Shown here piece after piece: positions 44,402 through 58,364 of a stretch of DNA of 58,797 nucleotides. A program made the translations under genes and the position numbers. Numbering within the stretch: position 1 is the first letter of the stretch; each line of letters opens with the position of its first letter. A model generated the notes under the pieces. It was not told where the DNA came from and did no database searches. It saw only the letters and a program-made list of their open reading frames with translations. The stretch lies in the IMG/VR virus record IMGVR_UViG_3300048837_000207, positions 1 through 58,797 of that record; one strand, written 5' to 3'. The stretch is from a virus (Duplodnaviria > Caudoviricetes).

Positions 44402-44958
44402 TTGGCGTACCTCTTCATCAGGAAGCTCACCCACTGGACGACGTTCACTTCCAACTGGTTGAGCGAGCCATAGTTCTTCACGGTCCCCTCAATAAGTGCC
44501 GGGGAGATCCCTTTCTCCGACGAGTGTGCAGCCACGGGGGCAACCCCCTCGCGATCGACCTTCCACACGGTGCCGCCCGCGTTGATGATAGTCTGCGCCT
44601 CGTTGTCGAACCGTACGTCGGTCACGACCATGCGTGGGGAAGTCATGGCCCGTACCTCGTCCCACCTGCGCAGCATCAACATCACCCACAGGTCGGGGTG
44701 TACGTGCTGCCTGCCCCACTCGGTGCCAAGCGTCTGCGCAACCTGCCGTGGGGATTTGCCGAGCCAAGGGATAACCTGCTCCTTGCGCTCCCGGTCGTCC
44801 CAGACGTGAAGGTCGATACCGAGCATGGCTTCCAGCCCCATCTTGAGCGGCATGGCAAGCGTGTAGCGAGAGAAGCCGCAGTTCGCCATGTACATGGCGA
44901 CGGTGTCTTTGCCGCAGCCTGCGGGGCCGCAGAGTCCAATCAGCAGTTGCTTGCTCAC
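44398..44958 (-). CDS. deoxynucleoside monophosphate kinase
   Basis: IGLCGPAGCGKDT, SPRQVAQTLGTEWGR, VTDVRFDNE, HSSE. Confidence 0.88.
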   Translation of the reverse strand: MSKQLLIGLCGPAGCGKDTVAMYMANCGFSRYTLAMPLKMGLEAMLGIDLHVWDDRERKEQVIPWLGKSPRQVAQTLGTEWGRQHVHPDLWVMLMLRRWDEVRAMTSPRMVVTDVRFDNEAQTIINAGGTVWKVDREGVAPVAAHSSEKGISPALIEGTVKNYGSLNQLEVNVVQWVSFLMKRYAK

Positions 44959-45227
44959 CGGGTTGAGTCCTTGCGCAGTACGAACCTGTTGTGGAGAAGC
45001 ATCGCGGCGAGACAGCCGGTGCCGCCTCCGAAGCCTAGTGCCAGAACCAGCCATATCGTGAATCCCTCTTTGGCAACCATCGCCACAACGTAGACTTCGA
45101 ACAGGGCCATCGCGTTGCTCGTCGCGACGACCCAGCCGTAGTTGTTGTGTATGACATTGCGTTGCTGAAACGCCTTCAAGAAGATAAAGGCGAAGTTGGC
45201 AGCGAACGTGGCGAGGAAAGCGATCAT
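44955..45227 (-). CDS. small multi-pass membrane protein
   Basis: Three hydrophobic segments, LKAFQQRNV, GGGTG. Confidence 0.6.
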   Translation of the reverse strand: MIAFLATFAANFAFIFLKAFQQRNVIHNNYGWVVATSNAMALFEVYVVAMVAKEGFTIWLVLALGFGGGTGCLAAMLLHNRFVLRKDSTR

Positions 45228-45490
45228 GCCTCGACCGTGACGACCTTCCTGATCGGACCCCTGCCGTCTGCCGCGTCTGCCGCTGCCCATGCCGCGTTCC
45301 AGCGCGTGGTATCCCAATGCCGCTTCGGCACAGGGGCGGCTTGCGGGTGCGTGAACGCGAACTGCATCGTCGGGCGCATATCGTGGTAGACGATGTTGAA
45401 CACCTTGCGAGCGTGGTTGCTCCAGCCCTCCCACTGCCGCTTCGGCACCTTGTGCTTGTTGAGGACTGGCCTGCCCATGTTCTTTGTCAT
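45224..45490 (-). CDS. hypothetical protein
   Basis: AAGGAGAC RBS; first gene of the replication operon. Confidence 0.65.
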   Translation of the reverse strand: MTKNMGRPVLNKHKVPKRQWEGWSNHARKVFNIVYHDMRPTMQFAFTHPQAAPVPKRHWDTTRWNAAWAAADAADGRGPIRKVVTVEA

Positions 45491-45519
45491 GTAGTCTCCT
45501 TGTGAAAATGATAGTTCAT

Positions 45520-45662
45520 GCCCCGTCTCGTGGGGCCTACGGCGGATCCAGAGTTCGCTCTTTATGAGGCGGCTTCACTCCCCCGCTGGCGACCGTTACT
45601 TTGTTGGGCCGAAGCCCGCAATGTCTCGCGACCTGTCGCCTGCGCGAGGGTGCGCTAGCACC
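45520..45662 (-). ncRNA. candidate structured leader RNA
   Basis: Several hairpins including cUUCGg and a potential 6-bp pseudoknot between a promoter and the first RBS. Confidence 0.4.
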
Positions 45663-45675
45663 TAACTTAAACAGC

Positions 45676-45703
45676 AGTATGCCCACGAATCCGAAAATGT
45701 CAA
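45676..45703 (-). promoter_or_regulatory. sigma70-like promoter for replication operon
   Basis: Minus strand TTGACA-N16-CATACT, just downstream of a terminator. Confidence 0.6.
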
Positions 45704-45717
45704 GCCCTACAGCAGAC

Positions 45718-45748
45718 AAAAAAATGGGGACCCCCGAAGGGGTCCCCA
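45718..45748 (-). terminator. intrinsic terminator ending the early operon
   Basis: TGGGGACCCC-TTCG-GGGGTCCCCA followed by T7. Confidence 0.9.
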
Positions 45749-45779
45749 AAGTGTTTTCGGGCACTTGCTAGGCTAGCAA

Positions 45780-46505
45780 TCAGGCGATGCCGTGGACTAC
45801 CCGAACCGGCCAGTCAGGACTGATCGTCTCGTCCGGTAGCAGCAGCGCCTCCGTGATGACCGCATCGTACGGGGCCAGCGCGGCAGGCGTCCATTCCTTG
45901 TCCAGCAGCACTGCCTCCGGTAGCCTCGACCGCACCTTGATCTTGCGCACGACTTCCTGCCCACGTTCAGGCAGGAAGCTGCACAGGTTGGGCCACAGCC
46001 GGTGGATCTGCCCCATCGTGTTGCAAGCCGAGAAGGCCCGCTCGACCTTGTTGTAGACCTGCGCACGCTCGATATCGAGCTTCACCCACCGCTCGCCCCA
46101 CTCCACCAGTGCATCCACCATGCTGATGGGAAGTCGGCTCATGTTCACCATGTCTGCGCCGGACCTCCATGTCTCGGTAGATGGCAGTGGCAGGCCAGTG
46201 CCGAACTTGACGAACATGGTCAGCGGCATCCTTGGCGGGGAGAACACAGTATCGACCTTGAACTCCTTCACGTCCCACTGCAGCGTCAGGTCGCTGTTCC
46301 GATGCAGCAGTGTCGGCATACTGGACTTCAGCAGCCGCAGGGCCGCACGTTCCTCATTTGTCCACAGGTGCCGGTAGATTTCCTTCGGGGCTATGGGGCA
46401 GGGGGCGAGCAGCCCCATCCGGTTCACCATCCGTTGCCCTACTCGCTCCAAGACTTCCGACTTGGAGTAGTCGCGGACGGTCTGGTTGTGTCGTCGTCGT
46501 CTCAT
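45780..46505 (-). CDS. hypothetical early protein
   Basis: GGAGG RBS, ATGA overlap; LWPNL motif; resembles upstream neighbour. Confidence 0.7.
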   Translation of the reverse strand: MRRRRHNQTVRDYSKSEVLERVGQRMVNRMGLLAPCPIAPKEIYRHLWTNEERAALRLLKSSMPTLLHRNSDLTLQWDVKEFKVDTVFSPPRMPLTMFVKFGTGLPLPSTETWRSGADMVNMSRLPISMVDALVEWGERWVKLDIERAQVYNKVERAFSACNTMGQIHRLWPNLCSFLPERGQEVVRKIKVRSRLPEAVLLDKEWTPAALAPYDAVITEALLLPDETISPDWPVRVVHGIA

Positions 46506-47206
46506 GTTATGCCCTCCTTATTGAGGCCAATCCACGCTGGTAGTTTCCCGTCAGCAGGCAGCATCACGGAGGCTGCCAACAGCTCGACCAAGCGAACAGA
46601 ATCTGCTGCCGACAGGCGAAGGTTGAGCCTCCCCCTGATGGCTTCGATCCTGCCGGTGTCCCGATGCGGAGCAGTCCGCATCCCTGCCAGCAGGGACGGC
46701 ACCGCACTCGCGACCTCTGGCCACGCGCGAGCGATATCCGCCTTGCTGGAGAACAACGGAGAGACCTCGTAGATCTTGTTGTGGAAGTGTCGGATCTCCG
46801 TGTCCATCGCTTCCGCCTTCGCGTACCAAGCCGTGAGCTTAGGGTCCTTGCGCACCGCCTCGTCCAGCATGAACGGTGATAGTACGCTGCTGGGACACAC
46901 AGGGCAGTCCTCCATGTGTAGCCAGAACGGCTGGACAGGATCAGCCCAATCGTCCACCGTGCGTGGATCCTGCAGGGTGAAGTGGATTACCTGCTGCCGT
47001 GCCGTCGCGCGCAGCAGGTTCCGGTACGCTATGTTGTGGTGGTGCATGGACGTGGGGACACGATCCACGAACCACTTGGCCACTTGAGGGGTGAACGCCC
47101 CGGAGTAAACCTTCACCGGGTCGCATGGGAACGGGATCGTCTGCCTCAGTCGAGGCAGCAAACCCGCCAGCTCAGTACGAAACGTGTACCTGACTGCTTC
47201 ACTCAT
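46502..47206 (-). CDS. hypothetical early protein
   Basis: Overlaps VWA gene end; AWPEV motif. Confidence 0.7.
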   Translation of the reverse strand: MSEAVRYTFRTELAGLLPRLRQTIPFPCDPVKVYSGAFTPQVAKWFVDRVPTSMHHHNIAYRNLLRATARQQVIHFTLQDPRTVDDWADPVQPFWLHMEDCPVCPSSVLSPFMLDEAVRKDPKLTAWYAKAEAMDTEIRHFHNKIYEVSPLFSSKADIARAWPEVASAVPSLLAGMRTAPHRDTGRIEAIRGRLNLRLSAADSVRLVELLAASVMLPADGKLPAWIGLNKEGIT

Positions 47207-48455
47207 AGTCGCTCAGCTCCACGCGAACCAGATCACCGAACGGCGGCTGCACGTCCGTCGTCATTACCCAGATGACGGGGTAAGGCGGCGGGACCGGAGG
47301 GAACGTGCCGTAGCCGTCGGTGAAGAAGATCAGGCAGTCAGGCACGATGCCAAGTTCCTCCACCTTCTGGAACGCAGGGATGAAGTTCGTACCACCGCCA
47401 CCGCGAAGCTCGGGCTTGTAGGTGTAGAGGTCGGTGTTGGCATCCAGTTCGTGAACGTCATGCACCTTGGCGTCACAGGACATCAGCCACAACCGCTGTG
47501 GCCTGCATGTGGAGAGAATCTCAGCCGACTCGGCGTAGCTCGCATCGAACTCAGCCTGCCCCATGCTGCCAGAGGTATCCACCACCTTGACCACCGTGCC
47601 AGCGCCGAACCCGGTGTAGCTCGGGAAGAAGATCTTCTGAGTCACCAGCCGACGGCGATGCGGTGACGCCCACGACGTAGCCTCACGGCTCACGATACGT
47701 GTGACGATGTGCCGCAGCCGATCCTTCCAGTTGACCTGCGGCTTGAGCATCTCCTCCACCCAACGCTCAAGGCTGGCGGGCATCTTCCCCATTGCCTTGG
47801 CTTGGTTACGTGCCGACGCAATGGACCGCTTCATCTCAGCCTCGGACTGCTTCGACGGCTCGTAGATATGGGTGTCCATCGGTTGCTGGTCTCCCACACC
47901 TTCGTTGGACGGGTCCCCTTGGCTGCCGGGAGGCGGCTGTCCACCGCCCGGTCCACCCGGCCCTTTCCCCTTGCCACTGGGAGGCGGCTTGAGCTTCTTG
48001 GCGAGCAGCCGGTACACATCCTCAAACAGCTCGGTGCCTTCCCTCGCGATGTTGGTGTCGTACAGCAGTCCCTTCGGCATCTGCCCGATCTTGTTGGCAA
48101 CGAGCAGCGCGTTGACGATGTAGTCGGCTGCGATGTTCGCCAGTCCGGGGTGGAACGGCTTGCCTTCGAAGCCGAGATCCGAGTACCGCTTGAACCGATC
48201 CATGTGCATCCACATGGCGTGGCCAATCTCATGGCAGCACACGAACACGGCCTCGGGTAGGCTCAGCTTGGCGAGGAAGTCCTCGTCGAACCAGATGAGC
48301 TTGCCGTTGGTCGCAGCAGTGGGGATGCCGGGGTACTTGCCCACACGCAGGTCCATCATGTCGAGCATGAGGGACGCAAAGAACGGGCAGTGCAGAAGCA
48401 TCGCGGTCTTCATTTCGGTGAACCGCGTGCGTGCTACGGGGTTGTTGATTTCCAT
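47199..48455 (-). CDS. DUF2201-type metallopeptidase plus VWA domain protein
   Basis: TAATNG, CHEIGH, NIAADY; MIDAS DTSGSM, GGGTNF, FTDGY. Confidence 0.88.
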   Translation of the reverse strand: MEINNPVARTRFTEMKTAMLLHCPFFASLMLDMMDLRVGKYPGIPTAATNGKLIWFDEDFLAKLSLPEAVFVCCHEIGHAMWMHMDRFKRYSDLGFEGKPFHPGLANIAADYIVNALLVANKIGQMPKGLLYDTNIAREGTELFEDVYRLLAKKLKPPPSGKGKGPGGPGGGQPPPGSQGDPSNEGVGDQQPMDTHIYEPSKQSEAEMKRSIASARNQAKAMGKMPASLERWVEEMLKPQVNWKDRLRHIVTRIVSREATSWASPHRRRLVTQKIFFPSYTGFGAGTVVKVVDTSGSMGQAEFDASYAESAEILSTCRPQRLWLMSCDAKVHDVHELDANTDLYTYKPELRGGGGTNFIPAFQKVEELGIVPDCLIFFTDGYGTFPPVPPPYPVIWVMTTDVQPPFGDLVRVELSDYE

Positions 48456-48485
48456 CGTTGTCTCCTTGTTGCTAGCCTAGCAACG

Positions 48486-49118
48486 TCAAAGGTCGAGGCC
48501 GGTCTGGAGGTTGAACGTCAGGACCGGCTTGCTCCTGACGAACTCCAGTAGTGGCATGCGCAACGGCAGCAGTTCCTTCTGCCACTCACGAACGAGGTTC
48601 GCGAGCTTACTGGTTGCGGGCTTCAGGTGGCCGCCGCTACGCCGCCATCGGCTGCGGGACATGGGGACTTCGTCGTCCTTCACGTGGTGCCCCACGTTCC
48701 ACCCATCAACGCAGAGCCACATGAACTGACCAGTCCAGCTATCGCAGCGGCGAATCGCCACGGCGGTGCGCAGGTCTACGTCAACCATGTGGGCGGCGGC
48801 GATGAGGTCCGTCTTGCAGGCTTCGGCCTTGTCGATGGGCACCAACACGTTCATGTTCTTCTTGCCCACGTAGCCGATGTTGGGGACATTCGGAGCCTCG
48901 TCGCAGTTGTCGAGCATGGTGAGGACGGCTCCTACTGCGTCGCCGTGGGACACCTTGAATCCCTGCTCGATTGCGGAACACACCTTGGTGAAGTCGGACT
49001 TCTTCATCCGCTCCCACCGAAAAGTGATAGTTCCAGTGCAGGTAAACGCCTCGGTCAGGTCGCTGCACACGTAGATTCCACCGACACCAGTGTGTCCGCT
49101 GATTCGTGATACGTTCAT
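48486..49118 (-). CDS. hypothetical protein
   Basis: AAGGAGG RBS before ATG 49118. Confidence 0.65.
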   Translation of the reverse strand: MNVSRISGHTGVGGIYVCSDLTEAFTCTGTITFRWERMKKSDFTKVCSAIEQGFKVSHGDAVGAVLTMLDNCDEAPNVPNIGYVGKKNMNVLVPIDKAEACKTDLIAAAHMVDVDLRTAVAIRRCDSWTGQFMWLCVDGWNVGHHVKDDEVPMSRSRWRRSGGHLKPATSKLANLVREWQKELLPLRMPLLEFVRSKPVLTFNLQTGLDL

Positions 49119-49120
49119 GG

Positions 49121-50383
49121 TCAGACCTCCTTGGCCATGCGGTCCATCATGTTGATGACTTCCTGTGCGTGAGCGCCGACCTCGGCGCGGAGCGTCGGCT
49201 TGGTCCGAAGTTCCTCCACGTCGTGCTGGCACAGGTGCTTGTCGATGTACTGGCGAATCTCTTCGATCCGCTTGTCACCCGTGACGTTCAGGTGCTTGAG
49301 CTGGCCGGACACCGACCGAACGTTGTCCACCAACGTGTAGTGAAACAGCTTGTCGGGATGCGACAGCCGCTCAGCCATACGCCCCACGTTCTCGTGGATG
49401 CGGACCCACAGGTCCTGCATGGCGTTCTCCAGCATCCTCTTCGTCTTGCCCTTCAGTGCGTCAGCCAGTGCCTGACACTGGGCCTCGGGCAGCCCCTTGA
49501 AGTCCGAGCCGACCGGGATCGGATGGAAGTCGAACGAGATATCGAAGTGCTGCCGGATCGACTCAGCATTGGGGTAGTCCGAGATATCGAACCGCTTGCC
49601 GAGCTTCTTCTTGGCCTCTTCGATCAGTTGGGGGTACAGCGGCACAAACGCATCCACCGCTGCCTCCATCTCCGCCTTGCGAGCGCCGAGCTTGCTGATG
49701 CAGTCGAAGAACGATGTGTTGGGCATCATCCTCGCCCCCGACCGACGGCCTGTGTCGTCCAGACCAGTGGTCGTCCACGGCGCAGTCACCGCGTAGAAGT
49801 CGGCACGTGCCGAGTCGATCGCCTTGTGGATCTTCTTCAGTTCCGTGTCGGCCCCCGCGAGCAGGTGCTTACGGGTTTCGAACGCAGTCACGTCGGCGTC
49901 GTTCGCATCGGCCACGTCTTGGCTGGCCTTGCGATCCTTCACCTTCGCATGCCACCTACGTGTGTTGAGCGTCACCAACGTGGCGAAGTTGCGCAGGTCC
50001 AGAGTCTCTGCGATCTCGTCGGTGGTGAACGTCGGCATGGTCATGGGCGGCAGCGAGTAGTCCGTCCTGTCCTTGGTGTCGGCAAAGGGCAGGGTTTCCT
50101 CCTGCGGGGCCGCAGGCTCGGTGATCGGCAGTTGCTCGCTGAAGTCAGCGAACGCCTCGCCTACCGGGTCCGTTGCTAGGCTAGCAACGTCGGGCTGGTC
50201 CATGATTTCCGTAGGCAACGGCTCGCCGTGGGTCAGCTCCTGCACGTCCGTAATCAGCGGCTCAAGCTCGGACTTGGGTTCCTCCACAGGTGCCGAAATG
50301 ATAGTTTCCGGCTCCTGCACAGGCAGAGGCTTGCTCTCGTCGAGGATATCAGCGAGCAGTTCGTCGAGGTTGAAGTCAGTCAT
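49121..50383 (-). CDS. AAA/VWA-associated helical protein (DUF3150-like) with acidic N-terminal extension
   Basis: KHLLAG, T.PW...G.R, LGKRFDISDYP, LKHLNVTGD; AAGGAGAC RBS. Confidence 0.65.
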   Translation of the reverse strand: MTDFNLDELLADILDESKPLPVQEPETIISAPVEEPKSELEPLITDVQELTHGEPLPTEIMDQPDVASLATDPVGEAFADFSEQLPITEPAAPQEETLPFADTKDRTDYSLPPMTMPTFTTDEIAETLDLRNFATLVTLNTRRWHAKVKDRKASQDVADANDADVTAFETRKHLLAGADTELKKIHKAIDSARADFYAVTAPWTTTGLDDTGRRSGARMMPNTSFFDCISKLGARKAEMEAAVDAFVPLYPQLIEEAKKKLGKRFDISDYPNAESIRQHFDISFDFHPIPVGSDFKGLPEAQCQALADALKGKTKRMLENAMQDLWVRIHENVGRMAERLSHPDKLFHYTLVDNVRSVSGQLKHLNVTGDKRIEEIRQYIDKHLCQHDVEELRTKPTLRAEVGAHAQEVINMMDRMAKEV

Positions 50384-50510
50384 TGTGTGTCTCCTTGTAG
50401 CGTCGAAGGGTCTCAGCATCCACCAGCCACGTGGCGGCAGCGTTGAGTGCGAACATTGCCATGCAGCAGATCATCAGCAGCGTATCCCGCACGGCTTGGG
50501 ATACAGTCAT
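50376..50510 (-). CDS. 44-aa putative membrane peptide (absent from ORF track)
   Basis: MTVSQAVRDTLLMICCMAMFALNAAATWLV...; fills a gap in the operon. Confidence 0.4.
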   Translation of the reverse strand: MTVSQAVRDTLLMICCMAMFALNAAATWLVDAETLRRYKETHND

Positions 50511-50518
50511 GAAAGCGT

Positions 50519-50689
50519 TCACCAGTTGGTCTCCTTGCGTCGTAGCTCGATCTCCATGCGGAGCCTTTCCACTTCGCGTTCAGAACGGCGGTGTTCTTCC
50601 TCCGTGCGCTTGAAGCGCCGAAGGGCCTGTTCAAGCTCCATCTCCATCCGCCAGAGCGGGAGCCTCGGTTGCAGTCGGTGGGCGTTCAT
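50519..50689 (-). CDS. 56-aa coiled-coil protein (absent from ORF track)
   Basis: GGAGGA RBS, ATGA overlap; MNAHRLQPRLPLWRMEMELEQALRRF... Confidence 0.5.
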   Translation of the reverse strand: MNAHRLQPRLPLWRMEMELEQALRRFKRTEEEHRRSEREVERLRMEIELRRKETNW

Positions 50690-51018
50690 CCTTCCTCCTT
50701 CATGATGCGAATCGCTTCGGCCTCTGTGTAACGGCGGACAAGTTCAGGGTGCAGCCGAATGATGCCCCCCTCACTCACGTACTCGGTGCTGAGCATGCCT
50801 GCCGCCAGCAGGATATCCCCACCCCTTGACGCTCCCCACTGGACCAGCCGAACGTCGAACATGTCGGCATGCACGACGCCACGCTGGATGCGGTGTTCCA
50901 GTCTCACTTGGATAGCCCCTCCCCATCCTGCGATGGTGGCGCGATACCCGCTGGACTTACTGCCGCAGCGAGTGGCCTCCCCCTTCGTGCCCTTGATGCT
51001 GCCGTAGAAGTGGCTCAC
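50686..51018 (-). CDS. hypothetical protein
   Basis: GTGA overlap with AAA gene; SHFYGSIKG..GEATRCGSK.SG. Confidence 0.6.
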   Translation of the reverse strand: MSHFYGSIKGTKGEATRCGSKSSGYRATIAGWGGAIQVRLEHRIQRGVVHADMFDVRLVQWGASRGGDILLAAGMLSTEYVSEGGIIRLHPELVRRYTEAEAIRIMKEEG

Positions 51019-52082
51019 TTGCGCTGCTCCAAGATGTTGGCCGCCAGCACCAGATCCTTGTTCTCCCGGATCCACTGCGCGAAGTCGGGGGTCTGGATCA
51101 TCTGCGGGCAACGGCGCAGCACAGCCTTGAGGCCAGCCACCTGAAACTCCTTGCCCAACCGCTTGAGGAAGGTGAACGCAGGCTTGGCCGTGGTGGCATC
51201 CACACGATGCGCGACCATCTGCATGCAGGCATACGTCGCGTCGATCCGGTTCTCGGGAACCTTCACCTTGTCGGGTGTCGCCACGATATCCTCCCACTTG
51301 GGCAGTTCCTCAGCCACACGCAGAAACGCAACGAACTCAGCCGCTGCACCTTCACCGATGTAGCCACCTGCCGCCTCGGTGAACATGTCCATTGGCAGCT
51401 TGCCGATCAGATGGCTGGTCTTGACGAACGTGCGGGGAGTGCAGAACGGACCCGACTTGTCCGGTACCTTGTCAGCGAAGATCAGGCTCGGCTTCACCTT
51501 TGCGAATGCAATGGCGAACGGGTTCAGCCCCTGCCGCTCGGCCCAATCGACCCACGAGTCCAGAGAGGGTTCGATGTTGACCCGGCAGATGCGGTTCTGG
51601 ATGAACGCCAGATCCCGGTTCACGCCCGAACGATCCGACTCACGGTTCGATGCCGCGACGACCATGTACGTGAGTTCGAGCCGTGACTCGCCCACTTGGC
51701 CTGACAGCATCAGTTCCGCACTCGGCTTGGCAACGTCGGGGTTGGCCTGCGCACGCTCGTTGAGGAAGATGAAGCCGTGCTTGGGGTCATTCGCACGCGG
51801 GACCCACGGTGCCTTCGTGAAGGTCATGATGGGACTGTTGTCCGTATCACGACCGGGGAGGCCGAAGCCACGTACGTCCGGTGCCTCAACCGTGGTGAGA
51901 AAGAAGGACTTGATGCCGAAGGGCTGTGCGAGCCGCTTCGAAATGATAGTCCCCGCCTGCGCCACGGCAGCATCCTTGCCGACGCCCGGCCCGGACACCA
52001 GCTCCACGGTGAAGCGTTCGCCCGTCTCCTGCTGAATGAAGTACATGTCGGCAAGGAAGATGGCAGCTTGGTTTACGTTCAT
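51015..52082 (-). CDS. MoxR-like AAA+ ATPase with variant Walker motifs
   Basis: SGPGVGKD, DVRGFGLP, FIFLNE, VAASNRESDRSG, QNR, TPRT; VWA partner in same operon. Confidence 0.82.
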   Translation of the reverse strand: MNVNQAAIFLADMYFIQQETGERFTVELVSGPGVGKDAAVAQAGTIISKRLAQPFGIKSFFLTTVEAPDVRGFGLPGRDTDNSPIMTFTKAPWVPRANDPKHGFIFLNERAQANPDVAKPSAELMLSGQVGESRLELTYMVVAASNRESDRSGVNRDLAFIQNRICRVNIEPSLDSWVDWAERQGLNPFAIAFAKVKPSLIFADKVPDKSGPFCTPRTFVKTSHLIGKLPMDMFTEAAGGYIGEGAAAEFVAFLRVAEELPKWEDIVATPDKVKVPENRIDATYACMQMVAHRVDATTAKPAFTFLKRLGKEFQVAGLKAVLRRCPQMIQTPDFAQWIRENKDLVLAANILEQRK

Positions 52083-52128
52083 GTGTGTTGTCTCCTTCGA
52101 TTGATGATTGATCTAACGAACATGCGCC

Positions 52129-52341
52129 TCACGGCGCTTGCATCCAGTATCGAGCGGCCTCGTCGCTCCAGATGTCCTTGACGAGCTGCGCCGCAGCCTT
52201 GTTCGTTCCAGACATCAGTGGGTAGCCGTCCCGGTTGCGGACGATCCACGTACCGGGGTGCGACGTTGACTCTTCCAGTTCGAACGGTGCGTTGAGTGCG
52301 GCCCACTCAGGGTCGCTGGGCGTTGGGGGTTTCCTCGTCAT
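52129..52341 (-). CDS. hypothetical early protein
   Basis: AAGGAGG RBS. Confidence 0.55.
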   Translation of the reverse strand: MTRKPPTPSDPEWAALNAPFELEESTSHPGTWIVRNRDGYPLMSGTNKAAAQLVKDIWSDEAARYWMQAP

Positions 52342-52528
52342 ACATCCTCCTTTCGTAGGTATCACGGATCACTGCCCACGCGTTACGCGGCTCACCCTTG
52401 GCGCGTAGCACGTGGCCCATGTGGATGAGGAACTCGGCTTCACCTGTCTGGGTAGTGGTAGTGACGGTATTGATGGTCGCGGTGCCGAACTGCAGCATGT
52501 ACGCTGCAAGCCAGTCCTCGTCAGTCAT
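52307..52528 (-). CDS. hypothetical early protein
   Basis: ATG directly after a palindrome copy; fits operon packing. Confidence 0.5.
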   Translation of the reverse strand: MTDEDWLAAYMLQFGTATINTVTTTTQTGEAEFLIHMGHVLRAKGEPRNAWAVIRDTYERRMYDEETPNAQRP

Positions 52529-52532
52529 GTTG

Positions 52533-52709
52533 CTAACCTAGCAACAGGCGGAACCAGTTGACCATCTGGTAGATGGCCTGCAGGCTCCACACGAAGCACA
52601 AAATGATAGCGATAATGCAGGCAATCCTGCCGATCGCGCCGATTGCTGCCCATGTGTCGAGCAAGATCAGCGTGCGTGTGGGGTCGATGCCTTTACGTCT
52701 CTCGTTCAT
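52533..52709 (-). CDS. small membrane protein
   Basis: GGAG RBS; hydrophobic IACIIAIILCFVWSL. Confidence 0.5.
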   Translation of the reverse strand: MNERRKGIDPTRTLILLDTWAAIGAIGRIACIIAIILCFVWSLQAIYQMVNWFRLLLG

Positions 52710-52956
52710 TTGGGTTCTCCATGAGTACGACTTCATAGTCGCGGTGGTCGAGGCTGTCTGCCCACTGGTCTGCGGACATGACAGAGGGGAAGGGTCCATA
52801 CGCTTCAGAGTCTCCGTCACCTGAGCGATGGACGATCAGCACGAACTGGTAGCGTTCCTCCTTTGGTGGTTGATCGAACGGTTTCATAGGCGAGCCACAG
52901 CCCGAACAGGTCTCGGGCTTCTGGGCTTCGGTGCCGCAGGCAGCGCAGATCCACAT
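52693..52956 (-). CDS. zinc-ribbon protein with YGPF domain
   Basis: GGAGG RBS; CAAC...CSGC; AYGPF. Confidence 0.6.
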   Translation of the reverse strand: MWICAACGTEAQKPETCSGCGSPMKPFDQPPKEERYQFVLIVHRSGDGDSEAYGPFPSVMSADQWADSLDHRDYEVVLMENPNERET

Positions 52957-52958
52957 GG

Positions 52959-53627
52959 TCAGCCTCCCTTCACGAGTTCCTTCACCCACCAGTCACCCTG
53001 CAACTTGTCCCCATAGTCACTGGCATCAGAAGGATCATCGAAGGGACCGTAGTACTCCATGCCGTCCACAGGGTTGCCGTGGATCAGGATGTACAGCGCG
53101 GGCTTGACGGCAGGATTGGTGACGTAGCCGGTGGCCGCCTTGTTCTTGACCCACTCACTGGCCAGCTCACGCAGCCGCTTCTCGTGGTTGTGCAGCGATT
53201 CGTGGAGCATCTTCCCCATCGCTTCGGCACGGCCAATCGCCTTGGTCGTCGTACCTTCCTTCTGGATCAGCGCCAGAACTTCGTTGTTCAGCTCGGCCAG
53301 TCGATTGTTGAACAGATCGAACTTCTCAGCCGTGGTGATCGACCGCCTGTCCATTTCCTCCCTTGTGTCCACGACTGCCCTACCGGCCAGATCAGCCTTG
53401 CAGAACGCATCGGACGACTGCTTGGTCAGGAACGCGATCCGGTCCTGCAGGGCCTTGATCACGTCGTTGTTGGACTCGTACCACTCGGTGTGGCCTTCGA
53501 TGTGGTCATGCACGCGAGCGAACAGCAGGTCGAACTTGTCCCGCAGATCCCTGATGCCCTGCGCCAGCTCAGCGGCGCGTTGCAGAGAGATATGGGACTT
53601 CTGGGTTGTGGATTTCTTCGTGGTCAT
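52959..53627 (-). CDS. coiled-coil protein with C-terminal YGPF domain
   Basis: AAGGAGAC RBS; heptad-rich; YYGPF. Confidence 0.7.
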   Translation of the reverse strand: MTTKKSTTQKSHISLQRAAELAQGIRDLRDKFDLLFARVHDHIEGHTEWYESNNDVIKALQDRIAFLTKQSSDAFCKADLAGRAVVDTREEMDRRSITTAEKFDLFNNRLAELNNEVLALIQKEGTTTKAIGRAEAMGKMLHESLHNHEKRLRELASEWVKNKAATGYVTNPAVKPALYILIHGNPVDGMEYYGPFDDPSDASDYGDKLQGDWWVKELVKGG

Positions 53628-53680
53628 GTGTGTCTCCTTGCTAGGTTAGCAACGTGTGAAAAATGATAGTTTGAGGGGCT

Positions 53681-53699
53681 GGGGGGCAGAACGCCCCCC
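53681..53699. other. GC-rich hairpin between early genes
   Basis: GGGGGGC-AGAAC-GCCCCCC, no clear U tract. Confidence 0.35.
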
Positions 53700-53722
53700 G
53701 CCATGCGCAGAGAACCTGCGGC

Positions 53723-54223
53723 TTACTTGAACTCGCCGATGAGCCACGCCAGCTTGTTGGCATCGCCGGTCATGAACGACTCGTCAATGCTGCGGGCAAG
53801 ATCCTGCCACTTCTCGACCTCGCAATGCGGAACTTCCAGCTTGCGAGTGTCCTCCCTGCGGCCATAGTCATGCGTCAGGCCGAGTGCCGGGAACGCCACC
53901 TGCGTGGTGTACGTGGAGCCGACGGTGGGCAGGGTGTCGATCGTGGCCTTCACTTCCTCGGCAAACTCCTTCATGGCCACGGCATCGAACTGCACGGCGC
54001 ACTCAGCCCCCCATCCCCGCTGGATGGCAGTGATATCGGGCCGGATCGACTTCACCAGTCGCTTCTCGTACTTCTTCAGGATCTTCTGCGCCGCCGCTTC
54101 GATCTTCGCGTTGTTCGTCAGTTCGAACTTGGCCGCCAGATCGGTCTGCAATTTGCAGGCCGCCGTCGCCTTGGCCATGAGCATGGACTTGATGACGCGA
54201 AGCTGTGCTTGGGTGATCTTCAT
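53723..54223 (-). CDS. hypothetical early protein
   Basis: AAGGAGA RBS before MKITQAQL. Confidence 0.7.
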   Translation of the reverse strand: MKITQAQLRVIKSMLMAKATAACKLQTDLAAKFELTNNAKIEAAAQKILKKYEKRLVKSIRPDITAIQRGWGAECAVQFDAVAMKEFAEEVKATIDTLPTVGSTYTTQVAFPALGLTHDYGRREDTRKLEVPHCEVEKWQDLARSIDESFMTGDANKLAWLIGEFK

Positions 54224-54252
54224 GTGTTTCTCCTTCGTTGCTAGGTTAGCAA

Positions 54253-54471
54253 TCAGTTGATGGTCGGATTGGCCGCGAGTATCTGGTCGATCAAGTCGAT
54301 GCACTGCTCGGCCTGTGCCAGTGCCTCGGCATGCTGTGCGCCCCCTCCTTTCAGGGCCTTCAGTCGGTTGTAGAGCTTGACCCACTCCCAGCGAATCTCC
54401 TTCGCGCGGGCAATGGTCTCGGCATCCAGCGGCTGCGACAACTGGATGTGGTTGGTCACGAAGATGTTCAC
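54253..54471 (-). CDS. hypothetical early protein
   Basis: GGGAGG RBS, GTGA overlap. Confidence 0.55.
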   Translation of the reverse strand: MNIFVTNHIQLSQPLDAETIARAKEIRWEWVKLYNRLKALKGGGAQHAEALAQAEQCIDLIDQILAANPTIN

Positions 54472-54587
54472 GGGTACGGCCTCCCCGCCTCGACCACCCA
54501 GAGGACCATGAACATGATCCACAGGACGGCAACTGCGAAGTAGCCCAGCCAGCCCAGCACACGTGCCGAAAATGATAGTTTCCTCAT
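54468..54587 (-). CDS. 39-aa membrane peptide (absent from ORF track)
   Basis: TGATG overlap; MRKLSFSARVLGWLGYFAVAVLWIMFMVLWVV. Confidence 0.5.
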   Translation of the reverse strand: MRKLSFSARVLGWLGYFAVAVLWIMFMVLWVVEAGRPYP

Positions 54588-54778
54588 CACTTCCACCCTC
54601 CCCTGCCAAAGATACGGTCGAACTCAGCCTCGAAACGAGGACTGGCCAGAGCCTCCGATACCGCAACGTCCTCGGCGCGGTCGTCCTCGGGCTTGGGCGG
54701 CACGTATGTGCAATGAGGGCAATCGCCAGCGATTGCTTCCCCTCCACAGTACGTGCAGACATGTGTTGGTGCCGTCAT
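54587..54778 (-). CDS. small zinc-finger protein
   Basis: CTYC...CPHC; TAATG overlap. Confidence 0.55.
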   Translation of the reverse strand: MTAPTHVCTYCGGEAIAGDCPHCTYVPPKPEDDRAEDVAVSEALASPRFEAEFDRIFGRGGWK

Positions 54779-55686
54779 TACATATCCCTCTGCAGTGCGT
54801 TCAACGAGGCATTGGTGGCAACGAGGTCGAGCTTGTCGTTCAGCGCCCGACGCTGGTCCTCCATTCTCTCCTCCAGATCCATCAAGGCACGGCGAGCTTT
54901 CCCGCCACGCTTGGTGGGAGGCTTGGGGGTCTTGGGTTTGCGCGTCGAGTTCATCGTGCGCTGCTCGGCGTAGACCTCGTCAATGGTGGGGCACGACTGA
55001 ACCGCGATCATGAAGCCCCTCACGTCGGGGCCGGAGTACTTCGGCAGCGAGACCCAAGCCGACAGTTCCTCGGTCACGGTGGGCGCGGCATACACAGGGT
55101 TGCCGTTCTCGTCCTGTGTGTCGTAGGGCTGCGGGGTTGCTAGGCTAGCAACGAGCGTATCGGTTATGTCGGAGTCCGGCCTCGGCCACTTGGCAGGCTT
55201 GGGTTCAGGCCGTGCGTTGGGATCGAACCCCTCGGGCAGGCGCCCACACACGTCGGCGTAGCTCCAGATGATGTACGGCGCATAGGTGATGGCGCCAAGG
55301 AACTGGGTCTCGTACCCGACTTTATCTGCCGTCACGTTGACCGAAATGATAGTTTTCGTGAGCGTGTTGCCAGAGCTGATCAAGTCATCCACGAACACCC
55401 ATCGCCTGCCGATCGTGCCTTCGATGCACTCGGAGCTGTGCGAGCCGTCGTTGTCCTTGCGGGCAATGGCCCAGCGCAGCCCCAAGGCTCGTGCCACGTA
55501 GGGCACAACCAGTGCGCCCGACAGGCCACGGCCTACGAGCGTGTCGCACTCGTCGAACTCTGCGAAGTTGGCTAGTCCCTCCTTGATGTAGGGAATGATC
55601 GCATCCAAGTCAGCCAGTGCCGATTCGAGGTATGGCGCGTGGGCCATGAGGATATCCCCGTCGGCGGACATGATTACGCGAGGCAT
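54778..55686 (-). CDS. type I phosphoribosyltransferase-domain protein with C-terminal extension
   Basis: LVGRGLSG, IARK, PRPP-binding loop WVFVDDLISSGNT. Confidence 0.8.
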   Translation of the reverse strand: MPRVIMSADGDILMAHAPYLESALADLDAIIPYIKEGLANFAEFDECDTLVGRGLSGALVVPYVARALGLRWAIARKDNDGSHSSECIEGTIGRRWVFVDDLISSGNTLTKTIISVNVTADKVGYETQFLGAITYAPYIIWSYADVCGRLPEGFDPNARPEPKPAKWPRPDSDITDTLVASLATPQPYDTQDENGNPVYAAPTVTEELSAWVSLPKYSGPDVRGFMIAVQSCPTIDEVYAEQRTMNSTRKPKTPKPPTKRGGKARRALMDLEERMEDQRRALNDKLDLVATNASLNALQRDM

Positions 55687-55687
55687 C

Positions 55688-55840
55688 TTACTTCCCCTTG
55701 CTGTGTGGAACCGTGAACTTACCGGCACGGTCGGTGTACCGTGTCGGGCTGTCCTGCCTGTGGTCGTACTTGAGCTTCTGCTCGCGCCGCTTGGCGTGGC
55801 GGTCCGAGAGTGGCTTGCCGTACTGGTTCGTGGATTTCAT
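55688..55840 (-). CDS. small basic protein
   Basis: GGAG RBS, MKSTNQYGKPL... Confidence 0.5.
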   Translation of the reverse strand: MKSTNQYGKPLSDRHAKRREQKLKYDHRQDSPTRYTDRAGKFTVPHSKGK

Positions 55841-55929
55841 CGTCGTTCTCCGTGTGGTGCCCCATTGGTGGATGCTATGGGTTGTGGGGCTGTCGGCCCA
55901 TAGCGTGTGTGTGATTGCTAGGCTAGCAA

Positions 55930-56345
55930 CGGGAAGCGTCATCCAGATGGATGGCTGTGACGCTTTCGCTGGACGCTTTATTTCCGTTTAGGATCAAGGG
56001 CTTAGGGGGTATTGGGTAAAGGGACCACGTTTTTTTTACACGTAACGCTGTGGGGCTTTGGTCCCCAATCCCCTGACCCTTCTCTCTGCCCTGCCCTCAC
56101 GTGTAACCATCCTCAGTTAGCTCTATACCTCTTTTACCTATTTATATATAAGTATATAATATATAAAGGAATTCATCCAAAAGAAGCGTCCCGCAATTTG
56201 CCGAATAAAGCGTCACATGTTGGCGCTTTCGTGCCGGAAGCCCCGTACAGTACGTGCCGCGATGATAGTAATCCGCCGCTTTTCGGCCCCCCAGCCTCAC
56301 GTTCCCAACACGTAAGGTTCAAAGCTACGTGTTGGGAACGTGTCC
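55930..56345. other. AT-rich non-coding region, putative replication origin / control region
   Basis: TTTATATATAAGTATATAATATATAAA at about 56141-56167, AAGCGTC/GACGCTT repeats, 17-bp perfect inverted repeat. Confidence 0.55.
56298..56342. repeat. perfect 17-bp inverted repeat with 11-nt spacer
   Basis: CACGTTCCCAACACGTA (56298-56314) / TACGTGTTGGGAACGTG (56326-56342). Confidence 0.9.
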
Positions 56346-56413
56346 AGCCATTGCTAGGCTAGCAACACGTGTGGGGAAAAGCCTCAAGGGCCGAGGTTTG
56401 CCATGACGCGGAC

Positions 56414-56442
56414 AAAAAAAGGGAGCGCCTTGCGGCGCTCCC
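56414..56442 (-). terminator. intrinsic terminator
   Basis: GGGAGCGCC-GCAA-GGCGCTCCC followed by T7. Confidence 0.9.
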
Positions 56443-56454
56443 AATTTCGGCCTG

Positions 56455-57192
56455 TTAGCCGACGGCCAGCGGGTTGTTGCGGTACGTGTTGCCGTGCTTC
56501 AGCGACACCGCGCAGTTGTCGGCCCAGAGGACCAACTGCGCCTTTGCCTTGGCATTGAGGCACGCCGGGACCGCAGCGCCCTCGGGCTTGAGGTTCAGGA
56601 TGCGGTCGATCAACGTCGCCACGTCCTTCGCGTACTCCGGTGTCGCGGCGGCGGCGGCCTTGCGGGCTTCCATGACCGCAGCGAGGTTGTACGCCGCGTC
56701 TTTCAACTCTGTGCAGAGTTTGCCCGCGTCCACCACACCGTGGATGATTCCCTGCTCCTTCGCCTGTGCAAGGATCGTGCTGCACGTGAACAGCGCCTTC
56801 GCCCTGCTGTGCTTCTGGTCGCAGGTCCGCTTGATGCGGTCCTGATCTTCCTTCGGCAGCTTCGACGTGTCGCCGTAGGATGCCGCGAGCTTCGCGCGCA
56901 CTGCGTCGGCGTGCTTGTTCACCACTTCCTCGGGGAGCGGCTTCCCGCGCCACTCGGCGGGAACGTGCGGCGCGAAGGACAGCACAGCACCGAGGAACGT
57001 CGTGTCCCTGCTGTGAGTGTCGAACGACTTCACCACTGCATCTTCCAGCGCGGTCCACGCCGACTCGGCGATTGCTAGGCTAGCAACCTCGGGCGTCGTC
57101 TGCTGAACCGCGTTCAGCACGGGCTGGCCACCCTGCGCCGCGAGCTTGGCTTCAAGTTCCGCGATCTTCTGAGCCATTGTCTGTCGAGCCAT
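56455..57192 (-). CDS. monocistronic hypothetical protein (245 aa, Ala/Lys-rich)
   Basis: CAGGAGA RBS before MARQTMAQK; has its own terminator. Confidence 0.75.
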   Translation of the reverse strand: MARQTMAQKIAELEAKLAAQGGQPVLNAVQQTTPEVASLAIAESAWTALEDAVVKSFDTHSRDTTFLGAVLSFAPHVPAEWRGKPLPEEVVNKHADAVRAKLAASYGDTSKLPKEDQDRIKRTCDQKHSRAKALFTCSTILAQAKEQGIIHGVVDAGKLCTELKDAAYNLAAVMEARKAAAAATPEYAKDVATLIDRILNLKPEGAAVPACLNAKAKAQLVLWADNCAVSLKHGNTYRNNPLAVG

Positions 57193-57359
57193 TGCTTTCT
57201 CCTGTGGGACGGTATGTCCATAGGACGGGTGGTGGGGGAGGGGGGGTCCGGCGCTCGGCGTTGCTAGGCTAGCAAGTCGCGGGGCTACCGGGGTGCCGGA
57301 CACCGGCCACCCCCGTCCGTAGGCCCCTATTAGGCACTTCAGCCCCACACCAAGTAGGG

Positions 57360-57389
57360 TAGACAACCTACCCTACCCCGGTTTATCCT
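57360..57389 (+). promoter_or_regulatory. sigma70-like leaderless promoter overlapped by a 9-bp inverted repeat
   Basis: TAGACA-N18-TATCCT-N6-ATG; GTAGGGTAG/CTACCCTAC at 57354-57376. Confidence 0.45.
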
Positions 57390-57395
57390 CCCCCG

Positions 57396-57878
57396 ATGAG
57401 TAAAGCACCGTGGACCAAACCCAAGCTCTGTCGCCGCTGCAAAAACGAGTTTCCGAGAACCCCAAAATTCTTCAGCGGGAAAGGACTCAAAGGAGGGTAC
57501 TGCAGGAAATGCGCTGACGCCGCGCTGGAAGCCTCTCAGCTCAACAACCCGAAGAAGCCCAAACACGAAAGCGGGCACTGGCTGTCGGAGAAGATGAAGC
57601 GCCTGCGGGTCCGCGCAGCGCGGCAGAACGTGCCGTTCGACCTCGACATCGAGTTCATGCGGGAGAAGTACTCGCTGACGCACTGCGAGTTCACCGGCAT
57701 CGAGTTCGCGGCGTCCGGACCGTTCGCGAAGTCGATTGACCGAAGAGATCCTAGCAGTGGGTACGTGAAGGCCAACGTCCAGATGGTGGTGTGGATCCAC
57801 AACGCGGCTCGTGGAAATTGGGGGGACGAAGCACTTGCGCGGTACGTGGCTGCGCTCGTGACGCGGAGGAGAAAATAA
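57396..57878 (+). CDS. HNH-like endonuclease with N-terminal Zn ribbon
   Basis: CRRC...CRKC; CEFTG...SIDRRDPSSGY...NVQMV...HNAARG; resembles 38533-39093. Confidence 0.72.
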   Translation: MSKAPWTKPKLCRRCKNEFPRTPKFFSGKGLKGGYCRKCADAALEASQLNNPKKPKHESGHWLSEKMKRLRVRAARQNVPFDLDIEFMREKYSLTHCEFTGIEFAASGPFAKSIDRRDPSSGYVKANVQMVVWIHNAARGNWGDEALARYVAALVTRRRK

Positions 57879-57879
57879 A

Positions 57880-57907
57880 TTGACTTGTTGTGATTCGTAC
57901 CCATAAT
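57880..57907 (+). promoter_or_regulatory. sigma70-like leaderless promoter
   Basis: TTGACT-N16-CATAAT-N6-ATG(57914). Confidence 0.6.
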
Positions 57908-57913
57908 AGACCC

Positions 57914-58141
57914 ATGACCACCGACGAGTTCTACGCCGCAACCCTCCTCGCCCTCGGCCCTCCGCCCACACTGCGTTACGTCAACCACTACAATGACGCG
58001 GAGCGGGAGTACCGGAAAGAATTCCTCCGCATGGTCCGGCTGTCCGGCGTGTGCACGTATCAGGAATCCGCCGAGTACCTGTATCGGGACTGGCAGTGGG
58101 TCTACCACAACGGGTCCTTCTGCGAGCGCAACAAGCCATGA
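57914..58141 (+). CDS. small hypothetical protein
   Basis: MTTDEFYAATLLALGPPP; ATGA-coupled to next gene. Confidence 0.6.
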   Translation: MTTDEFYAATLLALGPPPTLRYVNHYNDAEREYRKEFLRMVRLSGVCTYQESAEYLYRDWQWVYHNGSFCERNKP

Positions 58142-58347
58142 CCTTCAACGAACTGTTCACCGCTGCCCAGCTCGTCCTCGGCCCTTCACCACGCGATGAA
58201 GCGTCGAACGAAATGACGGCCTACCAGCTCAACCTGCTGAAGTGGTGCGAGGACGCAGGCGTGAAGAAGCTCGACGATCACGAGTACCGCAGGTTGCTGC
58301 TCGGCTGGTACTTCATGTGGGAGGCGGCGAATGCAGCTCGAATTTGA
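58138..58347 (+). CDS. small hypothetical protein
   Basis: MTFNELFTAAQLVLGPSP. Confidence 0.6.
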   Translation: MTFNELFTAAQLVLGPSPRDEASNEMTAYQLNLLKWCEDAGVKKLDDHEYRRLLLGWYFMWEAANAARI

Positions 58348-58364
58348 TTTCCCAGAATCAGGGA

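Follow-up and report, generated by a model that had tools for sequence, protein, structure and literature searches.

Short sites repeated many times within one replicon are known from several plasmids and bacteriophages. In the ParB-parS mould, the KorB operators (OB) of the IncP plasmid RK2 are an invariant palindrome with a central G or C, present in about a dozen dispersed copies of an all-or-none quality that lie at promoters, far from promoters and inside genes. The stoperators of Cluster A mycobacteriophages (L5/Bxb1-type) are many copies of a short site dispersed in transcribed DNA, often in short intergenic gaps, where bound phage repressor also stops elongation; the specificity of site and repressor varies by subgroup. 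Lambdoid Cro and CI, and Arc and Mnt of P22, are symmetric oligomers that recognise palindromes of 15-21 bp with specificities differing among related phages (immunity groups), and in the Cro/CI type the first gene of the early operon turns that operon down. Cluster O mycobacteriophages carry 17-bp repeats (5'-TGTTCGGNNNCCGAACA), with 34 copies in Corndog, according to the available text of PMC4351075, and in N4-like phages, as described in the available portions of PMC4496689, PMC9163698 and PMC3715699, early transcription starts from DNA hairpins and is carried out by a giant virion RNA polymerase. Here we describe an array of eleven near-identical palindromes in the early operon of a virus (Duplodnaviria; Caudoviricetes) known from IMG/VR record IMGVR_UViG_3300048837_000207. 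The whole record (58,797 bp, linear, estimated to be 97% complete) was analysed and is referred to below as the window; an earlier reading of its letters (the original prediction) had taken the palindromes for a binding-site array that acts at the level of DNA.

An exact scan of the window with TTGCTANNNTAGCAA returned eleven matches at the positions named in the original prediction, all within 45765-57275 (Table 1). None lies in the remaining 47 kb, which include the first 45 kb where none had been seen before, and none of 100 dinucleotide-shuffled sequences yielded a single match. When two mismatches were allowed, no further copy appeared anywhere in the window (shuffle mean 0.41), so the array has no degenerate tail. 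The true unit is a 15-bp palindrome, TTGCTAG-S-CTAGCAA, which is perfect in eight copies; the other three differ from it by one inner-arm transition and represent a single variant (GGT/ACC centre) in either orientation. Read on the plus strand, the centre is GGC in seven copies, GGT in two, GCC in one and ACC in one, and a 17-bp form extended by G...C is found in four of the eleven. The gaps between successive copies (2704, 1704, 2357, 1108, 600, 899, 778, 436, 721 and 189 bp) shrink irregularly, as had been described. Three copies lie within genes and are translated in frame as DVASLATD, LVASLATP and EVASLAIA, in agreement with the VASLA(T/I) reading proposed for the copies at 50173, 55137 and 57072; their common reading frame is forced, since the remaining two frames contain TAG. 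Of the other copies, several abut a ribosome-binding site (RBS), a stop codon or a terminator, again as first noted, and those at 55915, 56351 and 57261 are intergenic. The tetranucleotide CTAG is indeed rare, with 31 occurrences against 202 expected from base composition and 61 from a Markov model, and 19 of the 31 fall within palindrome copies. Over the whole window TTAA is depleted like CTAG (6 observed, 73 expected) and TATA is low (15 against 73); GATC and TCGA occur at about twice their expected frequency, and the palindromes of relatives, described below, include TTAA.

The array is conserved, is confined to one operon and is replaced by a different palindrome from lineage to lineage. 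A scan of IMG/VR with the exact 15-mer found one contig (L014/L015) with nine matches, and a tenth copy there has a GGT-type centre. This contig is collinear with window positions 41121-57248 at 65-83% nucleotide identity, and nine of its ten copies occupy places syntenic with window copies despite diverged flanks and several flipped central bases. Copy 2 has a syntenic site with a flipped centre in L015/L024 (the change C>G, at place 48476, is also seen in related contigs), copy 6 has one at L014:4495, and copy 7 has one in L014/L024 with unrelated flanks and a flipped centre. In a metagenome scan the exact 15-mer was present at at least 118 loci; among the matches listed, the only relatives were the short L155, L191 and L219, none of which bridges the gap between the ends of the record. 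Two metagenome contigs of 34% GC (L180 and L212) contain the exact 15-mer three times, 86-93 bp apart, within longer inverted repeats, and were set aside as unrelated AT-rich contigs in which the 15-mer was judged a coincidence. Contigs from four runs labelled 'RNA-Seq' were flagged as probably DNA, display neither starts nor ends, and have no bearing on expression.

Thirty-two IMG/VR loci found through the neighbouring ATPase gene were scanned for recurrent palindromes. Twenty-six have a recurrent palindrome of their own in at least four copies and a 27th, the 4.2-kb L043, has two copies; the five without one are a 2-kb fragment and four of the five loci whose ATPases are least similar (identity 27-35%). 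At ATPase identities of 53% or more, nearly every relative has its own palindrome in 4-10 copies. The half-sites are TTAACAG, TTAACTG, TTACACA (with 0, 1 or 2 central bases), TTACAAC, TTACAAG, TTACTCA, TCACACA/G and CCACACA. In two complete relatives of 62.0 and 61.6 kb, all eight copies lie in one 12-kb stretch and all five in one 9-kb stretch, respectively. The cultured Rhizobium phage RHph_TM3_14A carries TTACC-N6-GGTAA 18 times in the 33 kb examined, reaching into the replication module, and no recurrent palindrome was found in this census in N4 or in Vibrio phage phi 1. Two palindrome variants stand side by side in L038/L062 (TTAACAG-N-CTGTTAA four times and TTAGCAG-N-CTGCTAA three times), which may be a specificity change in progress. 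Two apparently unrelated viral contigs with other ribbon-helix-helix (RHH) proteins, L133 and L131, contain TAGTGT-N-ACACTA six times and TGCCCG-N-CGGGCA four times, so recurrent palindromes may extend beyond this clade.

Across lineages the sites recur within the first early gene and around it, in the intergenic DNA that follows, in gaps between a stop codon and the next RBS, ahead of the ATPase gene, within the N-terminal portion of an open reading frame (ORF) of 432 aa, and between the last stop codon and the operon terminator. This last order, stop codon then site then terminator, was seen in all six loci read by eye, to which the statement is limited (a scripted search for terminators was positive, at any site, in 9 of 26 loci). 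Of 24 homologues of the 432-aa ORF, 17 carry the palindrome of their own lineage in the N-terminal part, and the peptide shifts with the local motif (VASLAT, VNSLLT, VNCQLI, VTPVCN, VTTVVN and others). Because these homologues encode the local palindrome as differing peptides, selection on the DNA overrides that on the protein, and the retention of the motif in L014 likewise supports a DNA-level array of binding sites over a coding feature or a product of chance. A search of the PDB with the 432-aa family profile gave no match. Tandem arrays also occur, with five copies at a 20-bp period in L037 and two copies 27 bp apart in L026. The L037 array (L037:6214-6310) stands behind the first early gene and is built of five head-to-tail 20-bp units, each with the lineage palindrome (CCACACACCTGTGTGG); two copies of such a unit are present at L055:6269-6305.

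The comparison with dispersed IncP KorB operators made in the original prediction is apt as an analogy, in that both systems combine an invariant palindrome and a central S with dispersed copies at promoters, far from promoters and inside genes; unlike KorB and ParB systems, the array lies in a phage early operon and not in a plasmid backbone, and neither a ParB/Srx-domain protein nor ParA was found in the incomplete record, nor any sign of sliding or CTP use. The operators of Cro/CI and Arc/Mnt come in groups of 2-6, with degenerate copies, clustered at control regions, whereas the window has 11 near-identical sites over 11.5 kb, some of them inside genes. Stoperators share with the array their many copies in transcribed DNA, but they are asymmetric, monomer-bound and orientation-dependent (in part after the available text of PMC9283540), and the sites here are palindromic with mixed centre orientation. 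Cluster A phages are moreover temperate, and no integrase, immunity or other repressor, ParB or known DNA-binding domain was recognised when about 58 different ORFs of the window were compared with Pfam, with PHROGs or with both. For these ORFs the earlier statement that no repressor, integrase or ParB is recognisable therefore stands; it does not reach past the end of the record, which is cut where relatives encode an RHH protein. Among published systems the nearest parallel is the Cluster O palindrome of 17 bp, itself unexplained. As far as the available part of PMC4351075 goes, it too has two invariant 7-bp inverted arms with few one-mismatch variants, a small centre without meaningful orientation, and copies that lie between ORFs or near the 5' ends of genes. 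The Cluster O repeats differ in number and distribution (more than 30 throughout the genome, as against 11 in one early operon), and they belong to Mycobacterium siphoviruses, unrelated in host and phage type; the likeness is descriptive, with no shared sequence. The available part of that paper describes neither motif replacement between lineages nor a candidate binder.

We propose that the eleven copies form an array of operators, recognised as duplex DNA by a sequence-specific phage protein of two-fold symmetry whose specificity co-evolves with them, an explanation in which our confidence is about evenly balanced. The most likely binder, on a tentative view, is the dimeric product of the first early gene (ORF1), and its effect is possibly, though more doubtfully, repression. 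In the mechanism that we envisage, host RNA polymerase would start the leftward early genes, and the accumulating ORF1 product would come to occupy the control regions, the short gaps before most cistrons, a few intragenic places and the end of the operon. Once bound, it would repress initiation, block elongation across the early operon and regulate its own gene, in a logic that would combine those of Cro, the mycobacteriophage stoperators and KorB.

Several features of the sites argue that duplex DNA is probably the target of recognition. Of about 114 odd-centred sites, 112 have C or G as their central base (C at 69 and G at 43 on the coding strand), and this base flips among strains as well as among orthologous sites. 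Over 142 sites, position frequencies reveal no conservation outside the palindrome other than a symmetric G(-1)/C(+1), and the single-mismatch variants include three with a sense G-U pair, nine with an antisense G-U pair and five others. A centre drawn from both strands, unconserved flanks, the lack of a sense G-U bias and tandem arrays with 20-27 bp periods all point to symmetric recognition of a duplex. The original prediction had set the array apart from ordinary promoter operators, which proves too strong. One or two copies occupy the divergent control region. Among the sites of relatives, 6 of 136 begin between -2 and +11 nt from a sigma70-like -10 hexamer, as against about 1.3 expected from background density; the majority of the six stand ahead of the ATPase gene, in several lineages, the classic position of a repressor operator. 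The conserved promoter-like element upstream of the ATPase gene (L025:9940-9985, L026:9930-9978, L029:9935-9980, L032:1050-1100 and L033:7750-7800) consists of TTGA(T/G)TT, a spacer with CACACG(T/A)TT, and TAT-N-AT, and the palindrome starts at or just past the -10. The sites of a host regulator were set aside as an explanation: closely related phages differ in motif, and the copies within one phage are identical (a judgement made among phages alone).

The original prediction had offered ORF1 as a candidate binder, and this part of it fares well in three respects. First, ORF1 has one site upstream, one inside and one downstream; in all six loci read it comes first among the genes and is flanked by sites, and its divergence tracks the motif best. 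In Mantel tests of half-site distance against protein distance, with ATPase distance held constant in the partial test, ORF1 gave a simple r of 0.59 and a partial r of 0.47 (p 0.0003), the VWA protein 0.47 and 0.26 (p 0.005), and the 432-aa protein 0.32 and -0.04 (p 0.69), each over 15 lineages; the RHH protein gave 0.26 and -0.03 (p 0.59) over 13. The result is suggestive of an ORF1 divergence that follows motif divergence beyond phylogeny, with the signal concentrated at alignment columns ~100-200. Second, the protein is basic, with an isoelectric point above 8.5 in 68 of 68 family members scanned. Third, it is predicted to form a symmetric homodimer (score 0.65, with 0.00 for the best of three controls, partner predicted local distance difference test (pLDDT) at least 71 and at least 73% shared contacts), in a tool whose mark was reached by 20 out of 30 pairs of solved structure and by 1 out of 23 single chains. 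Positional homologues are present in 20 loci, and the family amounts to 223 clusters at 50% identity, all metagenomic, among 1.84 billion proteins; the VASLA(I/T) peptide of copy 10 is retained in the 25 sequences of alignment A1. The AlphaFold2 (AF2) model is all-alpha (pLDDT 77). Fold searches rose no higher than E 0.56 (Foldseek against the PDB) and Z 6.1 (VIA), which is helical noise, and the superposition of the C-terminus on a Spo0J helix-turn-helix segment (Z 4.6, root-mean-square deviation 2.3 over 53 residues) is within noise. Two assignments were discarded: DUF3102, the best named cluster in a protein atlas, scored 0.80, under the reliable range, and the best profile match among PDB sequences, to an engineered I-CreI chain (E 0.0012, 22 bits) among designed helical repeats, was judged compositional.

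A number of observations weigh against this explanation. ORF1 has no recognisable DNA-binding domain, with no Pfam, PHROG or PDB fold match of its own and no shared Pfam family among the 68 members, and its profile finds no homologue in the Rhizobium phage, which carries palindromes, nor in N4, phi 1 or the distant loci. (By eye alone, ORF1 and those phages have a common C-terminal '...AA..LG(I/L).(I/V)' ending.) The Mantel tests draw on a small number of lineages that are related to one another, the distances for ORF1 approach saturation, and its gene and the sites are physically linked. The real binder may be a genuine DNA-binding protein, the RHH protein of 55-65 aa whose gene lies in the divergent operon of 16 relatives. 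The spacing of similar 7-nt half-sites varies between 0, 1 and 2 bp among lineages and the palindrome centre is free in the Rhizobium phage; a centre of variable length fits a hairpin loop as easily as a co-evolving dimer. Finally, 67 of 142 sites lie no more than 16 nt upstream of a Shine-Dalgarno motif, as against 13 of 142 on the control side, which fits an element of the mRNA, although an association with RBSs is expected anyway, since stop-to-RBS gaps are the sole non-coding DNA in a packed operon.

The rival most in need of exclusion follows from the N4-like architecture of the genome, which the original prediction had missed: the palindromes could be hairpin promoters or regulatory sites of the N4 type, extruded from supercoiled DNA and read by a virion or early phage RNA polymerase, possibly within the giant 3610-aa protein, with a specificity that co-evolves with the stem. 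We consider this unlikely. The gene order matches that of coliphage N4 (gp24 ATPase, gp25, polymerase, exonuclease, primase, then gp50 on the opposite strand), with genes for a gp24-like ATPase, a gp25-like VWA protein, a polymerase, an exonuclease, a helicase and a primase converging on the giant virion gene. The giant protein occupies the same position as gp50 and, like gp50 and the virion RNA polymerase (vRNAP) of phi 1, is free of cysteine (0 in 3610 residues). Its similarity to gp50 (aa 335-475 aligned with 244-408, E 0.02) and to the vRNAP of phi 1 (aa 2375-2487 aligned with 1938-2060, E 1e-9) is weak but collinear, in both cases outside the catalytic part, and its centre diverges very fast (26% identity to G001, where the ATPase is 74% identical). 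Yet no RNA polymerase domain was detected in it: Pfam returned LPD39 only (aa 2543-2731), PHROGs returned an N-terminal lytic transglycosylase (aa ~36-160) and a DarB-like C-terminal part, phmmer against the PDB returned nothing, and the central 2000 residues had no match. For aa 1100-2225 the AF2 model was of too low a quality (pLDDT 55) for a verdict; it matched no polymerase, and its fold search gave nothing better than E 0.016, T7 core proteins being among the weak matches. No RNAPII-like gene was found among the early ORFs scanned.

The sites themselves divide in the same way. Their geometry, a stem of 6-7 bp with a 3-nt loop, confined to the early region, fits the hairpin promoters, and the 17-mer folds into a 7-bp stem and a 3-nt loop at about -4.6 kcal/mol as single-stranded DNA (DNA parameters); the length of the centre varies among lineages as that of a loop might. 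In the portions available, PMC4496689 gives N4 hairpins a 5-7 bp stem and a 3-nt loop, and PMC9163698 gives LUZ7 nine early hairpin promoters, two of them in tandem ahead of the first abundant early gene; the likeness to these N4-like phages (Schitoviridae) extends to the early location, to 3-9 copies per genome and to a tandem pair. However, N4 requires a template-strand purine at the loop centre, and here a G occupies that position on the template strand in 9 of the 11 copies of the window, in 5 of the 10 of L024 and in 69 of all 112 odd-centred sites, so no strand-specific loop base is kept. As available in PMC4496689, PMC9163698 and PMC3715699, the transcript start of LUZ7 (a G) lies 13-14 nt from the hairpin centre and positions -17 to +1 are conserved in N4, whereas over the 142 sites nothing is conserved from the hairpin to the would-be start, and a start 11-14 nt from the centre would cut off the Shine-Dalgarno motif lying 0-5 nt past the palindrome. 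Copies here abut RBSs, in each of the six loci read one stands just ahead of the operon terminator, a row of five with a 20-bp period is senseless as a set of promoters, and sigma70-like promoters are present. Were hairpin promoters nevertheless the answer, a very divergent virion RNA polymerase would lie concealed in the giant cysteine-free protein, a prospect of no less interest.

It is rather improbable that the binder is not ORF1 but the small RHH protein of the relatives' divergent operon, whose gene would in this virus lie in the unassembled gap beside 58797. Such a protein has a precedent in P22 Mnt, with its 17-bp palindromic operator. All 13 aligned members match Pfam RHH_3 and 12 of the 13 match RHH_1, and the gene, found in 16 palindrome-bearing relatives, lies without exception on the divergent side; in the eight loci measured, the nearest site is 1.2-3.2 kb away. 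The start of the record is cut within a methyltransferase gene (5'-open frame 1-477; the junction comprises 1-477 and 58639-58797), exactly where L026 has the RHH gene: between its homologues of window 58791 and window 64, L026 holds about 3.4 kb with the RHH gene, ORFs of 90 and 186 aa and a pair of ORFs resembling transferases. Contigs of 63-64 kb encode proteins, ORF1 and the giant protein among them, that are 98-100% identical to those of the window. On the other side, motif distance does not follow RHH distance in the partial Mantel test given above, nor when ORF1 is held constant (-0.16). L025 and L029 have the same motif and differ at the two variable beta-strand residues of the RHH protein, and L039 and L044 have nearly identical RHH N-termini and different half-site spacing. 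No RHH protein was found in the window's 58.8 kb or in the 33 kb examined of the Rhizobium phage, and L049 has a weak RHH-like ORF (E 0.004) yet no palindromes.

We regard as quite improbable an action of the motif in mRNA, as a stem-loop of 6 bp and 3 nt lying just 5' of RBSs that a lineage-specific phage RNA-binding protein would bind or cut, with translational repression, processing or stabilisation of early cistrons as the outcome. The Shine-Dalgarno association speaks for it, as do the location of all window copies, except possibly the one at 57261, in transcribed DNA of one operon, the copy at the 3' end ahead of the terminator, and the fact that behind a promoter the hairpin would form the 5' end of the transcript. 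That association is, however, what the gaps of a packed operon would give in any case; the sense-strand loop is not kept (GCC, GGC, ACC and GGU are all present), the mismatches are not biased toward sense G-U pairs, the stems of AT-rich variants are weak (-3.5 kcal/mol, DNA parameters), and the copies in the divergent control region and the tandem arrays resemble DNA operators. A role in DNA handling, as iteron or handcuffing sites of the replication initiator, as a dispersed centromere or compaction array, or as pause or protection sites that an ejected virion protein binds on the first-entering DNA, is very improbable. In its favour, site density is highest around the 600-bp intergenic region with its AT-rich tract and repeats (where L037 has its five tandem copies), the perfection of the copies recalls that of parS and KorB sites, and no other large protein in this comparison evolves as fast as the giant ejected one. 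Against it, the window ORFs scanned include neither ParA nor ParB nor a protein with a recognisable DNA-binding domain of an initiator, the copies track the gene boundaries of one operon and not a single locus, and, of the two other early proteins compared, the VWA protein covaries weakly with the motif and the 432-aa protein does not. The record is linear and incomplete, and 'first-injected' is a supposition; the centromere, coating of injected DNA and ratcheted genome entry named in the original prediction are without specific support.

If the palindromes are operators of the ORF1 product, a widespread environmental phage group, spanning contigs from wastewater, freshwater and seawater runs as well as cultured Rhizobium phages, would time its early genes by a compact orthogonal protein-operator system. 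What is new is the clade-wide presence of lineage-specific palindromes at syntenic places of the same early operon. Such a group would provide a natural library of orthogonal repressor-operator pairs (15-16 bp palindromes), a new DNA-binding fold, and a testable handle on early-gene timing in phages of N4 architecture without recognisable phage RNA polymerases, and may explain the similar palindromes of the Cluster O mycobacteriophages. It is conceivable, though on balance we doubt it, that ORF1 is the founder of a new family of dimeric, all-alpha, sequence-specific DNA-binding proteins which with the array would form a whole-operon early switch in a large uncultured clade; its matched 'specificity groups' would be comparable to immunity groups, in apparently lytic podoviruses.

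The features of the window are collected in Table 1. Among cultured phages there was no megablast match for 45000-58797 and no close relative at the DNA level, and the closest cultured matches of the ATPase are in Rhizobium phages (31%) and N4-like phages (26-29%).

Table 1. Palindrome copies, genes and control elements of the window.
Feature	Position	Strand	Context
Copy 1 (TTGCTAGGCTAGCAA)	45765..45779	.	Between TGA stop of last early gene (45780-46505, minus) and operon terminator
Copy 2, centre GCC	48469..48483	.	Between stop of ORF 48486-49232 and RBS/ATG of VWA gene 47199-48455
Copy 3	50173..50187	.	In frame, 432-aa ORF 49121-50419, codons ~78-83, VASLAT
Copy 4, variant, centre ACC (+ strand)	52530..52544	.	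Overlaps TAG stop of ORF 52533-52820; ends 1 nt ahead of ATG of ORF 52307-52528
Copy 5, variant, centre GGT	53638..53652	.	Immediately upstream of RBS of ORF 52959-53627; TATCAT element 10 nt upstream on minus strand; surrounding genes missing from L014
Copy 6, variant, centre GGT	54238..54252	.	Between TGA stop of ORF 54253-54762 and RBS of next gene
Copy 7	55137..55151	.	In frame, phosphoribosyltransferase-like ORF 54778-55728, VASLAT
Copy 8	55915..55929	.	Intergenic, ~75 nt upstream of ATG 55842, start of long early operon
Copy 9	56351..56365	.	600-bp intergenic region, just downstream of ORF1 terminator
Copy 10	57072..57086	.	In frame inside ORF1, VASLAI
Copy 11	57261..57275	.	Divergent control region, ~70 nt upstream of ORF1 start
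Intergenic hub, copies 8 to 9	55930..56350	.	AT-rich tract, ACACGT repeats, blocks conserved with L024
ORF1	56455..57192	-	First early gene, 245 aa, all-alpha, isoelectric point 8.5, candidate palindrome binder
Intrinsic terminator leaving ORF1 monocistronic	56421..56442	-	100% conserved in L024
Divergent control region	57193-57395		
Leftward genes	57192 -> 34024	-	~20 early genes first, function mostly unassigned
Phosphoribosyltransferase-like protein	54778-55728		Early-gene product recognised
MoxR-like ATPase	51015-52082		Early-gene product recognised
DUF2201 VWA/metallopeptidase	47199-48455		Early-gene product recognised
Intrinsic terminator ending palindrome-bearing operon	45725..45748	-	
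Sigma70-like promoter (TTGACA-16-CATACT)	45676..45703	-	Opens palindrome-free replication module; consensus match alone
Replication module			3' of terminator and sigma70-like promoter: dNMP kinase, family A polymerase, PD-(D/E)XK exonuclease, SNF2 helicase, DUF927 primase-helicase
Rightward genes	57396 -> across record ends -> ~34100	+	Methyl-/glycosyltransferases, terminase, portal/adaptor, major head protein, tail fibres, internal virion protein, 3610-aa ORF
Giant ORF	23008-33840	+	3610 aa

The intergenic region 55930-56450 could be an origin or the main early promoter region. Its AT-rich tract lies at ~56140-56170, at least five ACACGT(T) repeats are arranged as inverted pairs around copy 9, and the blocks conserved with L024 are ACTATCATC, CCCCTAAGCCCTTGAT and GGAATAAAGCGTC.

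In the cultured Rhizobium phage RHph_TM3_14A (L060, MN988472), a 1027-aa 'putative integrase' is annotated at 31572-33032, where the window has the DUF927 primase-helicase, and a 14-bp 'attL' at 16113-16126 within the ATPase gene; given the common gene order, both annotations look doubtful. Three neighbouring small ORFs on the plus strand of the window (57890-58141, 58138-58334 and 58331-58642) resemble paralogues, with a common '...A..L.LGP.P...' start and Trp/Tyr-rich ends, and have homologues in L025 and L026.

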